A stretch of 25,739 nucleotides of DNA, taken from the IMG/VR virus record IMGVR_UViG_2675903417_000004, one strand, 5' to 3'. A program made the translations under genes and the position numbers. Positions 11,804 to 14,716 of this stretch are shown piece after piece. A model generated the notes under the pieces. It worked only from the letters and a program-made list of their open reading frames with translations, made no database searches and was not told the DNA's origin. Source of the DNA: a virus. Lineage: Duplodnaviria; Heunggongvirae; Uroviricota; Caudoviricetes. Numbering within the stretch: the stretch's first letter is position 1; every line of letters starts with the position of its first letter.

Positions 11804-12701
11804 GCACTGGAAAAACATTACTATTTATAAACTTTCTCGTGAGGCGGATCTGACCGACTTAGAAGATAAAAAGAAAATGATCCTTTTCACGCCATGCGGT
11901 AGTCAGGATATGGCCAAGTTCGGTTTTGTATCTCCATTTGGTGATAATTCCGAAGTTATCGCTATGAATGGAAATGGTTTTATCCTTGTTGAAGCAAAGC
12001 GCGAAACAAAAATTCTTCCCCCGCCGGTTATCCAGCGAGCTATTCAAGAAAAAATTGAAAAACTTGAGCAAGAACAAGCGCGTAAACTGAAGAAAACAGA
12101 TAAGGACTCCCTGAAAGACGAAGTTCTGCATTCTCTTCTGCCACGGGCTTTTTCAAAGTTTTCTGTTATCCAGGCGATCTACGACGGTTCAACTAAACGT
12201 ATCTATATCAATGCCAGCTCGCGGCAGGCAGAGGATATGCTCGCGCTTATGCGTAAATCTCTGGGTTCTCTTCCTGTTGTTCCCCTAAGTGTTGAAAATC
12301 CCATTGAATTAACGCTAACCGACTGGGTACGTGATGGTAGTGCTCCACAGGGATTTCAAATGGGGGATGCGGCAGAACTTAAGGCAGTGCTTGAGGATGG
12401 CGGTATTGCCCGAGTGAAAAAGCAGGATTTGGGAAGCGATGAAATTTCCACACACCTGGAAGCTGGCAAGCTCGTCACAAAGTTGGCACTCGACTGGCAG
12501 AACCGCATTAAATTTACACTGGACCATAACTTCAGCCTTACCAGCGTCAAATTTGCGGATGAATTGCTTGAGCAGAACTCTGATATTGATAGTGAAGATG
12601 TAGCGCAGCGACTGGACGCAGATTTCTTCCTGTTGACCAGTGAAATTTCGTGCCTGGTTGATGCTCTGGTAAATGCCCTTGGTGGAGAGGCTAAGCAGTG
12701 A
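11796..12701 (+). CDS. hrdC: RdgC-like recombination-associated protein (301 aa)
   Basis: N-terminus [16 protein letters not shown] and blocks [52 protein letters not shown] resemble E. coli RdgC. Confidence 0.85.
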
Positions 12702-14716
12702 AAGAGCTGTGCTATGGATCTGTTTGCAGTGGAATTGAAGCCGCGAGTATTGCCTGGGAACCGTTGGGTATGCGTCCTGCGTGGTTTGCTGAAATCGAGC
12801 CTTTTCCATCTGCCGTTCTTGCGCACCGCTGGCCCCATGTCGCCAACCTTGGCGACATGTCAAAACTTGCCAAAAAAGTCCTGGCTGGGGAAATCGAATC
12901 CCCTGATGTGCTCGTCGGGGGTACGCCTTGTCAGGCATTCAGTATCGCGGGCTTACGTGGTGGGCTTGATGATGAACGCGGCGCGCTAACTTTGAAGTAT
13001 GTGGAGCTTGCAAATGCAATTGACGACAAACGGTCTGAGTCCTTCCTCAAACCGACAGTTATCGTCTGGGAAAATGTCCCAGGAGTCCTGTCATCGGCAG
13101 ATAACGCCTTCGGATGTTTCCTTGCCGGATTGGCTGGAGAAGATGCGCCATTTGAACCAGGTGATCGACCTGAATCAGGAAAAAGTAACGCGTTCTGGCG
13201 GTGGGATGGCAAAACCGGTTGCCATGCTCCAAAGTGGCCGCAGTGTGGTTGTATTTATGGACCGCAGCGAAAGGTGGCCTGGAGAATCCTTGATGCCCAA
13301 TACTTCGGAGTGGCACAACGACGCCGACGCGTGTTTGTTGTCGCAAGTGCTCGAACAGATCTCGATCCCGCAACGGTACTTTTTGAGTTCGAAGGCGTGC
13401 GCCGGAATATTGCGCCGAGCAGAGGCGAGGGGAAGGAAACTACCAGATATACTTCAAACATCGCTATCAGAACTTGCGATGATACAAACATAATTGCCAT
13501 GGCACATGGGCAAGGAGGGGCTGAGATAAAAACCGATAATTCGGCACCAACTTTGACATGTAACCATGAAGCACCAATTGTATTGCTCGGCGACGGTAGA
13601 ATGCGCCGTCTTACCCCTGTCGAATGTGAAAGGCTGCAAGGTTTTCCTGATTGGCATACGTTGATCCCTACGGGAAAGCGTAAAAAAGTTTCTTCAGATG
13701 AACTGGCATACCTTCGCAATAACTATCCTGATTTAAACGAAGAAGAGGCCGCGATGCTTGCAGCTGACGGACCGCGTTACAAAGCGATCGGCAATAGTAT
13801 GGCGATACCAGTAATGCGCTGGATTGGCGATCGGATTACCAAGGCTGCATGTCGGCAGAATGAAGGGAGTGAAACAAAAGAGCGAAAAGTTAAACCAGCG
13901 GCAGAATTCGAACGGTCCATATTCAAATGGGCTGGTGGAAAATTTGGTGTTCTGGAACAAATATTTCGCTATTTGCCAGAAGGGAAGCGCCTGATTGAAC
14001 CTTTCGTCGGTGGCGGAGCTGTCTTCATGAATGCCGGATACCAGGAAAATCTGCTAAATGATGTGAATGCTGACCTGATTAACTTTTACAAGACTCTGCA
14101 ACGCGAGGAGCATTCACTTATCACTCTGGCACATCGTTTTTTCCTGGACTACAACACCCAGGAGGGATACTTGGCAGTACGGAATGCGTTTAACAAACAA
14201 GTCTATGATGATTTACATCGCGCAGCGGCGTTTTTGTTCCTGAACCGACATTGTTTTAACGGATTGACGCGTTACAACCAGGCCGGTGAGTTCAATGTCG
14301 GTTATGGGAAGTATAAAACTCCGTATTTCCCATTACAGGAGATGGAAGCCTTCCTCGGTGCGGAAGGGCGGTCTGAGTTTGTATGCGGTGATTTTGCAGC
14401 GGTGATTGAAGCTGCCGGAGAAGGAGATGTCATCTTTTGCGATCCGCCGTATGAACCGCTCCCCAATACAGAGGGGTTCACGAACTATTCCGGTCATGAC
14501 TTTAAGTTTGAAGAGCAAAAACGCCTGGTGTCTCTGTTGACGGATGCTCATCGCCGAGGTGCAAAGGTTCTCATTACTAACAGTGGCGCGCCAAACATCA
14601 GAGAACTTTATCAGGACAGTGGCTTCAGAGTGGAACCTCTTTTTGCCAGACGTTCTGTGTCTTGTAAGGGAGACACTCGTGGTGTTGCTCATGACGTTAT
14701 AGCAATATTGCTCTAA
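12698..14716 (+). CDS. dmt: bifunctional DNA methyltransferase: N-terminal C5-cytosine MTase domain fused to C-terminal Dam-like N6-adenine MTase domain (672 aa, GTG start overlapping the hrdC stop)
   Basis: C5 motifs [12 protein letters not shown] (PCQ), VWENVPG (ENV), [17 protein letters not shown]; Dam motifs [26 protein letters not shown] with overall colinearity to E. coli Dam. Confidence 0.9.

Follow-up and report, generated by a model that had tools for sequence, protein, structure and literature searches.

We identified the 672-aa open reading frame (ORF) examined here as dmt, the gene designated dam in phage P7, and its sequence corresponded to the common P7-type allele of a P1/P7-like phage-plasmid, without an intein. 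The encoded protein combines an N-terminal C5-cytosine methyltransferase (C5-MTase) with a C-terminal Dam-family N6-adenine methyltransferase. We consider it highly probable that this is a P7-type Dmt that the C1 repressor controls, in which the Dam half acts on GATC and the C5 half has a target of its own. A bifunctional Dmt/Dam is already known, as its annotation goes back to the deposition of the P1 and P7 genomes. Features of the region are listed in Table 1; all positions refer to the window, i.e., the whole 25,739-nucleotide stretch of viral DNA that was analysed.

Table 1. Organization of the dmt gene and its surroundings in the window.
Feature	Position	Strand	Basis or remarks
C1 repressor operator Op(dmt)/Op68, ATTGCTCTAATAAATAT, before the uhr-hrdC-dmt operon	11431..11447	+	Identical to the annotated operators of P7 and P1
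uhr/upf64.0 homologue, 94 aa, gene 1 of the operon	11519..11803	+	Position as for P7 upf64.0 and P1 uhr
hrdC, RdgC family, 301 aa	11796..12701	+	Pfam RdgC, E = 1e-97; P1 and P7 arranged alike
dmt, P7-type allele	12698..14716	+	672-aa bifunctional C5-cytosine/N6-adenine DNA methyltransferase
C5-MTase catalytic core, motifs I to VIII, aa 1-240	12698..13417	+	Motif map; catalytic Cys78 within GTPCQAFS
Variable target-recognition cassette, single module, aa 241-302	13418..13603	+	No DNA similarity to P1
C5-MTase motifs IX and X, aa 303-381	13604..13840	+	Motif map; M.HhaI alignment
Predicted late promoter LPdam2 (-22 box aagtttctt, -10 tgaact)	13686..13704	+	Identical to the P7-record sequence; inside the C5 part, upstream of the Dam part
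Interdomain linker, charged, aa 382-406 (~25 aa)	13841..13915	+	Follows the C5 match and precedes the Dam HMM matches
Dam-family N6-adenine methyltransferase domain, aa 407-672	13916..14716	+	TIGR00571, PF02086, E. coli Dam alignment
Bivalent C1 operator Op(ban)a/b	14707..14734	.	dmt stop codon overlapped by the first half; next operon (ban) begins here

The whole window shared 98.5% identity with a P1 isolate and 97.8% with P7, and by this comparison it is DNA of a P1/P7-like punavirus. According to the ORF map, dmt begins with a GTG codon, which overlaps the stop codon of hrdC as GTGA, and a Shine-Dalgarno sequence (GGAGAGG) ends 7 nt upstream. The gene showed 97.7% DNA identity to P7 dam over its full length (~97% at the protein level, with an equal length of 672 aa) and, when the target-recognition cassette was left out, 97.5% DNA identity to P1 dmt. 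A 100% identical protein (P0001) was present in NCBI, public assemblies contained this exact protein in 63 blocks or more, and the same fusion of C5 and Dam domains was present in many Enterobacterales genomes.

A first-pass annotation, based on the nucleotide sequence alone, had recognized the N-terminal C5-MTase and a complete C-terminal Dam domain in this single ORF, with boundaries at approximately residues 1-390 and 400-672. Pfam and NCBIfam searches, the motif map and alignments to PDB structures agreed with this description. The same annotation had raised the possibility that the domains were rearranged relative to P1 Dmt, in which case the protein would be novel in its domain arrangement, or a dual-specificity fusion of a new kind, separate from P1 Dmt. 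The difference of 82 aa in length from P1 Dmt is what could speak for such a protein; however, alignment and Pfam scans of four alleles (window, P1, SJ46 and CP059910) gave one and the same domain order, and C5 precedes Dam in P1 (AAQ14041), P7 (AAQ07538), SJ46 and RCS47. The 82 aa correspond to a swapped target-recognition cassette and not to a change in domain order, both the length and the sequence match P7 Dam, and an identical protein had already been deposited, making novelty of this kind extremely improbable. Since both order and length are those of a known protein, the fusion is unremarkable, which is how the annotation itself had proposed to read such a match.

The N-terminal half matched Pfam PF00145 (E = 2e-36, 126.4 bits versus a cut-off of 22) and NCBIfam TIGR00675 'dcm' (E = 3e-33, 115.8 bits versus a curated cut-off of 100.65). 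Motif mapping of the window protein revealed the canonical order of C5-MTase motifs: a variant motif I (CSGIEA, aa 10-15), motif IV (GTPCQAFS, aa 75-82), motif VI (ENVPG, aa 125-129), motif VIII (QRRRRVF, aa 207-213), the 'PTLT' of the target-recognition domain (TRD, aa 284-287), motif IX (aa 303-317) and motif X (GNSMAIP, aa 365-371). Thus, the motif set is complete, as had been noted before, but the sequence previously written as QRRRVF contains one more R. The C5 core segment was 99.4% identical to P1 at the DNA level, and hundreds of C5-MTases from phages and prophages shared 55-70% identity with the C5 core.

The deviation of motif I, which reads CSGIE(A) and not the canonical FxGxG, could mean that AdoMet binding is impaired in the C5 half. 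It also fits an alternative in which the Dam half alone is functional and the C5 half is a catalytically dead or non-enzymatic appendage, such as a DNA-binding or targeting module, that is kept for structure. The GenBank notes of the P1 and P7 records are consistent with this possibility in that they give C5 cytosine only as 'perhaps' the site of methylation, and our full-text search of a literature collection found no report demonstrating m5C formation by any P1-family Dmt. In addition, the laboratory reference P1, which carries G74W beside the catalytic PCQ, is viable, and so is another laboratory strain, in which dmt is incomplete. However, the catalytic residues of motifs IV (PCQ), VI (ENV), VIII (QxRxR), IX and X (GNS) were all intact, the same motif I variant was conserved throughout a large subfamily that includes C5-only enzymes, and the unusual 12-residue C5 motif was kept in relatives of 54-68% identity. 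The pN/pS ratio, which was computed from 7 sequences with few substitutions and non-independent pairs, was 0.14 for the C5 core, 0.33 for the motif IX-X segment and 0.09 for the Dam half; both halves are under purifying selection. Recognition cassettes, moreover, are traded among lineages as intact modules, a pattern that a dead domain would not readily account for. We therefore regard a dead C5 half as unlikely and favor an active one, which is predicted to generate 5-methylcytosine at one short sequence.

The C-terminal half matched NCBIfam TIGR00571 'dam' over nearly the entire model (positions 3-265 of 267; E = 1e-74, 251.6 bits versus a cut-off of 114.85) and Pfam PF02086 at aa 411-644 (E = 9e-57, 193 bits versus a cut-off of 22). 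Its score against NF008152, the E. coli Dam equivalog model, was 244.2 bits, which is below the cut-off of 441, and the domain is thus a member of the family and not an equivalog. It contained the FKWAGGK motif (aa 409-415), the AdoMet motif of the FxGxG type (PFVGGGAV, aa 435-442) and the catalytic DPPY (aa 582-585). The motif map, HMM coverage, PDB alignments and pN/pS ruled out degeneration of either the C5 or the Dam domain. In P1, dmt is needed for pac methylation and for phage production in dam- hosts (PMC12707154; PMC11437467), and the role documented there for the Dam half is to methylate pac for packaging (PMC12707154). Since GATC specificity is known for P1 Dmt and the Dam half is ~97-98% identical to that of P1, the window protein most likely also methylates GATC for pac cleavage.

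The major difference between the window allele and P1 dmt was found between C5 motifs VIII and IX, i.e., in the target-recognition region, where a 62-aa cassette replaces the unrelated 144-aa cassette of P1 Dmt. DNA comparison detected no similarity to P1 from nt 722 to nt 907 of the gene, with breakpoints at window positions 13419/13438 and 13604, and the GC content of the cassette was 45.7% versus 53.9% for the core. Among 498 dmt-carrying plasmids, 184 had the window/P7 cassette and 257 the P1 cassette, the remainder being other types. The window module, which aligns with the recognition loops of M.HhaI (GQGERIY...TL), was seen again in 28 of 150 distant relatives, where it sits within variable regions 190-408 aa long. 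Motifs VIII and IX were ~91 aa apart in the window, and the median distance in the relatives was 241 aa (based on the 129 of 150 in which both motifs were located). Tandem recognition modules were absent between these motifs in the window allele, which has one module only.

As the cassette is wholly unlike that of P1 Dmt, the cytosine target, and hence the specificity of the C5 half, probably differs from that of P1. No target could be assigned by similarity, as the nearest solved enzyme is M.HhaI, whose TRD is weakly similar, and the database matches were named generically. We tentatively suggest that the C5 half may be active as an anti-restriction methylase, with portable modules, shuffled among phage-plasmids, setting its specificity; the window would then represent the minimal, one-module form with a target unlike that of P1 and also unlike those of SJ46-type alleles, which have at least two modules and would be multispecific. 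Literature describing modular C5 specificity of P1-family Dmt was not found, which may reflect the collection searched, and on m5C activity of Dmt, cassette variation or an intein in dmt the full-text search returned only generic mentions.

A second type of variation involved the catalytic Cys of motif IV. The Hint/LAGLIDADG insertion that may occupy this position was absent in the window, where GGTPCQAFS is contiguous, and an intein at the dmt catalytic cysteine was present in OP279344, RCS47 and 133 plasmids, or about a quarter of alleles. If the modular scheme is true, the choice of module, along with whether relatives carry or lack the intein, would be a determinant of host range in P1-like elements. 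For those who use "P1 Dmt" as a reference, it is relevant that the cytosine-recognition cassette is polymorphic; because both the cassette and the intein vary, what is learned about methylome or host range from one P1-like element need not hold for the next.

We further analyzed the genomic context of dmt. The gene order behind Op(dmt), namely uhr, hrdC and dmt, and the placement of Op(ban) on the dmt stop codon were as in P1 and P7, and the uhr/upf64.0 homologue had no Pfam match. The C1 operator pattern was matched four times in the window, versus 0.12 matches expected. A generic sigma-70 and terminator scan of positions 11300-15400 yielded sites no more numerous than in shuffled sequence. 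In P1, dmt has been measured as C1-controlled and induced in lytic growth (PMC4713147). Because C1 operators flank uhr-hrdC-dmt, dmt should be silent in lysogens, and such silence argues against a role at oriR. This is the origin of the prophage plasmid and is in use while C1 is active. The first-pass annotation had suggested that the enzyme might methylate a GATC cluster in oriR; the cluster is indeed present, with five GATC sites at 9118-9169, but its methylation by Dmt is unlikely given the control of dmt by C1, as indicated by the operators here and by the P1 data (PMC4713147).

An additional possibility is that the gene yields two products: the full-length enzyme from the C1-controlled early promoter and a late Dam-only protein from the predicted promoter LPdam2, starting at an internal Met, e.g., M353 at 13754, such that adenine and cytosine methylation would be separated in time. 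The LPdam2 sequence annotated in P7 was identical in the window, the in-frame ATG at 13754 has an AAGAGG sequence 5 nt upstream of it, and a start at this position would lie upstream of the complete Dam domain. On the other hand, LPdam2 is only predicted, by the depositor of the record, the need to encode C5 motifs IX-X accounts just as well for the conservation of this stretch, and the generic sigma-70 scan detected nothing at LPdam2, although P1 late promoters are outside the model used by the scan. We consider a separate Dam-only product to be rather doubtful.

In the model that we prefer, dmt would be expressed from third position in the uhr-hrdC-dmt operon, which C1 would hold off in the lysogen and which lytic growth would switch on; this expression model is based on the conserved operators and on the P1 data. 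Dmt would then act as two autonomous S-adenosylmethionine-dependent methyltransferase domains connected by the linker of ~25 aa, with enzymatic specificities and biological roles that we infer for each half. The Dam domain would methylate the adenine of GATC; its documented use is to keep the fast-replicating phage DNA methylated, so that pac cleavage and packaging do not depend on the host Dam. The C5 domain, with its one short recognition module, is expected to place 5-methylcytosine on one short sequence, and this methylation would most likely shield the DNA of the progeny when it meets Type II restriction in a new host. The analogy to other orphan methyltransferases of phages, and the cassette polymorphism, make such an anti-restriction role of the C5 half plausible.

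The closest known counterpart is P7 Dam (AAQ07538.1; AF503408 68963-70981), a 672-aa protein annotated as a 'hypothetical bifunctional DNA methyltransferase', which has the same cassette and is likewise flanked by hrdC upstream and by Op(ban) where the gene stops. The window protein differs from it by 19 scattered amino acid substitutions, none of which is in the catalytic motifs. P1 Dmt (AAQ14041.1; AF234172 66412-68676) shares the domain order, the operon and the operators, and its gene is 96-99% identical to the window at the DNA level on either side of the cassette. However, it is 754 aa in length, as compared with 672 aa, and the P1 reference contains W74, whereas the window and all other alleles contain G at this position.

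Further comparisons concern other methyltransferases. E. coli Dam (PDB 2g1p, 4gbe) belongs to the same fold family and aligned end to end with the Dam half (E = 5e-59), sharing the KWAGGK, NGLxRYN, EFNV and DPPY motifs; it is a separate protein, whereas the Dam of the window is a fused domain. The monospecific M.HhaI (PDB 1mht and others) has the same motif order as the C5 half and could be aligned with it over motifs IV-VI, the TRD with motif IX, and motif X. Its recognition loops correspond to GQGGAEIK...PTL in the window, and the distance from motif VIII to motif IX in the window is typical for a single TRD, as in M.HhaI; beyond the motifs, similarity was low, and in the window protein extra insertions separate motif VI from VIII and motif IX from X. 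Multispecific C5-MTases of the SPR and phi3T type are found in Bacillus temperate phages (reviewed in PMC12707154). Like the C5 half of Dmt, these are phage-borne orphan C5-MTases with a variable region made of portable modules, and the longer enterobacterial alleles may likewise be multispecific, whereas the window allele has one module.

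The first-pass annotation had described a fusion of C5-cytosine and Dam-like methyltransferase domains, with the cytosine domain at the N-terminus, in an ORF at 12698–14716. We recovered this ORF (dmt) at the same coordinates and with the same length (672 aa), on the + strand, and the fusion was supported by the motif map, profile matches and alignments with sequences of solved structures. The start codon and the stop codon of the upstream gene share a GTGA overlap, and a GGAGAGG sequence ends 7 nt before the start. The C5 motifs, motif I as a variant, occurred in canonical order. 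In profile searches both domains scored far above chance, with Pfam matches to PF00145 (E = 2e-36) and PF02086 (E = 9e-57, aa 411–644) and NCBIfam matches to TIGR00675 'dcm' (E = 3e-33) and TIGR00571 'dam' (E = 1e-74, model positions 3–265 of 267), the last two above their curated cut-offs. E. coli Dam crystal-structure sequences aligned end to end with the C-terminal half (E = 5e-59), and M.HhaI aligned with the N-terminal half in motifs IV–VI, in the recognition loops and motif IX, and in motif X. The E. coli Dam equivalog model has a cut-off of 441 bits, and the window gene scored 244 bits, which makes it a Dam-family member but not an equivalog; judged by sequence, it belongs to the C5-methyltransferase family as well.

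Features of dmt and C1 operators in the window
Feature	Position	Strand	Remarks
dmt ORF	12698..14716	+	GTG start, 672 aa
C5 motif I variant CSGIEA	aa 10-15 of dmt		motif map
GTPCQAFS (C5 motif IV)	aa 75-82 of dmt		motif map
ENVPG	aa 125-129 of dmt		motif map
QRRRRVF	aa 207-213 of dmt		motif map
Variable cassette	~13418-13603, aa 241-302	+	between C5 motifs VIII and IX
'PTLT' element of recognition region	aa 284-287 of dmt		motif map
C5 motif IX, 15-residue stretch	aa 303-317 of dmt		motif map
GNSMAIP	aa 365-371 of dmt		motif map
Dam motif FKWAGGK	aa 409-415 of dmt		C-terminal to C5 series; motif map
Dam motif PFVGGGAV	aa 435-442 of dmt		motif map
Dam motif DPPY	aa 582-585 of dmt		motif map
C1 operator Op(dmt)/Op68	11431-11447		one mismatch; identical to P1 and P7 Op(dmt)/Op68
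Bivalent Op(ban)	14707-14723 + 14718-14734		first half overlaps dmt stop codon
Fourth C1-operator-like site ATTGCACTAATAATTTT	24942-24958	-	2 mismatches to consensus; outside dmt region

Neither half showed any sign of degeneration, a question that had been raised for both domains. The catalytic residues of C5 motifs IV, VI, VIII, IX and X were all present. Motif I reads CSGIEA versus the canonical FxGxG. Its 11-residue stretch was kept in relatives of 54–68% identity, C5-only enzymes included, and is thus probably a subfamily trait rather than decay. The pN/pS values (Nei-Gojobori, seven alleles) were 0.14 for the C5 core, 0.33 for the motif IX-X segment and 0.09 for Dam, and serve as supporting evidence only, because counts were small and pairs non-independent.

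The 82-aa length gap between the window and P1 Dmt fell wholly within one cassette. Against P1, DNA identity was 99.4% in the part ending at gene nt 722 and 96.3% in the part beginning at nt 907, with no alignable stretch between. The cassette falls between motifs VIII and IX, where C5-methyltransferases have their target-recognition domain, and the M.HhaI alignment agrees with this placement. Its GC content was 45.7%, compared to 53.9% in the flanking core. The window/P7-type cassette was detected in 184 plasmids and the P1 type in 257, and the alleles of SJ46, with 807 aa, and of CP059910, with 862 aa, carried longer types. Local alignments showed these longer alleles to be mosaics: in SJ46 the window module is present and a second one comes after it, and in CP059910 a P1 module is joined to the second module of SJ46. 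The best-scoring 150 cluster representatives at 50% identity included 129 in which motifs VIII and IX were both found, and in these the VIII-to-IX spacing ranged from 61 to 419 aa (median 241 aa); the window spacing (91 aa) was one of the shortest. The window module was found again in 28 of the 150 representatives, nearly always within far longer variable regions. The recognition region is thus modular, and the window has it in a minimal form with a single module. The monospecific M.HhaI has a similar spacing, and its loops GQGERIY...TL align with GQGGAEIK...PTL of the window; window dmt did not belong to the multi-TRD group. The longer dmt and C5-only relatives may be multi-TRD enzymes, possibly multispecific, with analogues in Bacillus phages. 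Mosaic variable regions of recurring modules were observed in SJ46 (L003:300-2723), CP059910 (L004:301-2889) and database proteins P0151, P0158 and P0126, and each module in the longer dmt and C5-only relatives had an (S/A)PTL- or GTLRA-type element.

Window dmt is intein-free at 12926–12931. An in-frame 341-aa intein was present in dmt of the P1 isolate OP279344 (L005:532-1554) and of RCS47 (L006). The dmt intein matched the Pfam families Hint_2, LAGLIDADG_3 and Intein_splicing, and its insertion point splits C5 motif IV precisely between GTP and CQAFS, with the result that the catalytic cysteine doubles as the +1 splice residue. It occurred in 133 of 498 dmt-carrying plasmids, with both P7-type and P1-type cassettes. 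Descriptions of the intein and of the modular cassettes were not found in the literature searched; both concern the dmt family, not this window. A further difference was seen at Dmt residue 74, three residues ahead of the catalytic PCQ, which is Trp in the P1 reference strain, c1-100 mod749::IS5 (L002:3220-3222), and Gly in the window and all five other aligned alleles. In the second sequenced laboratory P1 (AF234173), dmt is 'incomplete'. We speculate that laboratory passage may have inactivated the P1 C5 half, e.g., through McrBC pressure in K-12.

The adenine activity documented for P1 methylates GATC in pac, so that in dam- hosts the phage depends on dmt for its production (PMC12707154; PMC11437467). 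No demonstration of C5-half activity of Dmt was found in the literature searched. The most economical reading is that this half plausibly protects progeny DNA from Type II restriction, and exchange of recognition modules among lineages fits such an anti-restriction role. It had also been proposed that Dmt could methylate the GATC cluster in oriR. The oriR-type, methylation-dependent cluster is indeed present (five GATC within 52 bp, 9118–9169), but a role for Dmt there is unlikely: oriR, the prophage-plasmid origin, works while C1 represses dmt, so host Dam is the expected methylase. The cluster lies upstream of a 286-aa ORF (8058..8918, minus strand), located where the P1/P7 map has RepA.

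Four sites in the window matched the 17-nt consensus of the C1 operator, versus 0.12 expected by chance. As in P1 and P7, Op(dmt) and Op(ban) flank three genes, the first of 94 aa, the second of the RdgC family (Pfam E = 1e-97) and the third dmt. P1 dmt is C1-controlled and strongly induced in lytic development, as measured by rt-qPCR (PMC4713147). The P7 record lists a predicted late promoter, LPdam2, within dam, and the window sequence is identical at 13686–13704. Downstream of it is an in-frame ATG (13754, Met353) with AAGAGG 5 nt upstream (13743–13756), from which a separate Dam-only product is conceivable.

Downstream of dmt, we observed a Band_7/SPFH-family gene (16508–17335, plus strand, Pfam E = 1e-30) with a 78-aa ORF just upstream, flanked by tRNA-Thr (15483–15558) and a CAT-anticodon tRNA (17363–17438). 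At this position P7 has terB-upf69.4-upf69.6 and P1 has plp-upl-tciABC, and among contigs with identical Dmt, some had the Band_7 version and others the TerB one. ARAGORN assigned the CAT-anticodon tRNA to Met, whereas its counterpart in the P1 and P7 records is an ileX-like tRNA-Ile whose modified CAT anticodon reads AUA.

The window product has a 100% identical match in NCBI (P0001), listed there as 'Dam family site-specific DNA-(adenine-N6)-methyltransferase'. The exact protein was found in 63 blocks of public assemblies, in every case with the 94-aa and RdgC genes ahead, and dmt was present in 498 plasmid records. C5-Dam fusions of 44–72% identity occurred in many Enterobacterales (Kosakonia, Phytobacter, Klebsiella, Erwinia, Citrobacter, Pantoea and Enterobacter), and among the 50%-identity cluster representatives (P0122, P0124, P0126, P0128 and P0130). 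A dmt 90% identical to the window gene was also seen on a 5.9-kb contig labeled 'MAG: Bacillota bacterium' (L008, JAFAFU010000017.1); this contig is most likely a P1-like fragment of enterobacterial origin that was binned wrongly.

The window is a P1/P7-like punavirus, with 98.5% identity to P1 isolate OP279344 across 95% of its length and 97.8% to P7. Its dmt aligned with P7 dam over the full length in a single piece (97.7% identity), and with P1 dmt in two pieces covering 91% of the query (97.5%), which places it in the P1/P7 Dmt orthologue group as a P7 allele. The first-pass annotation had considered a rearrangement relative to P1 Dmt. This was ruled out: a three-protein alignment gave a common order for P1, P7 and the window, C5 first and Dam second, and Pfam matches gave the same order in the P1, SJ46 and CP059910 alleles. 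It had also stated that a match in order and length to the known phage enzyme, P1 Dmt, would make the fusion unremarkable, and the P7 protein matches in both. The feature is already known, and there is nothing new about dmt here: the P7 protein (AAQ07538, 672 aa) is recorded as a 'hypothetical bifunctional DNA methyltransferase; methylates DNA at N6 adenine and perhaps C5 cytosine', and P1 Dmt (AAQ14041, 754 aa) carries the same wording.
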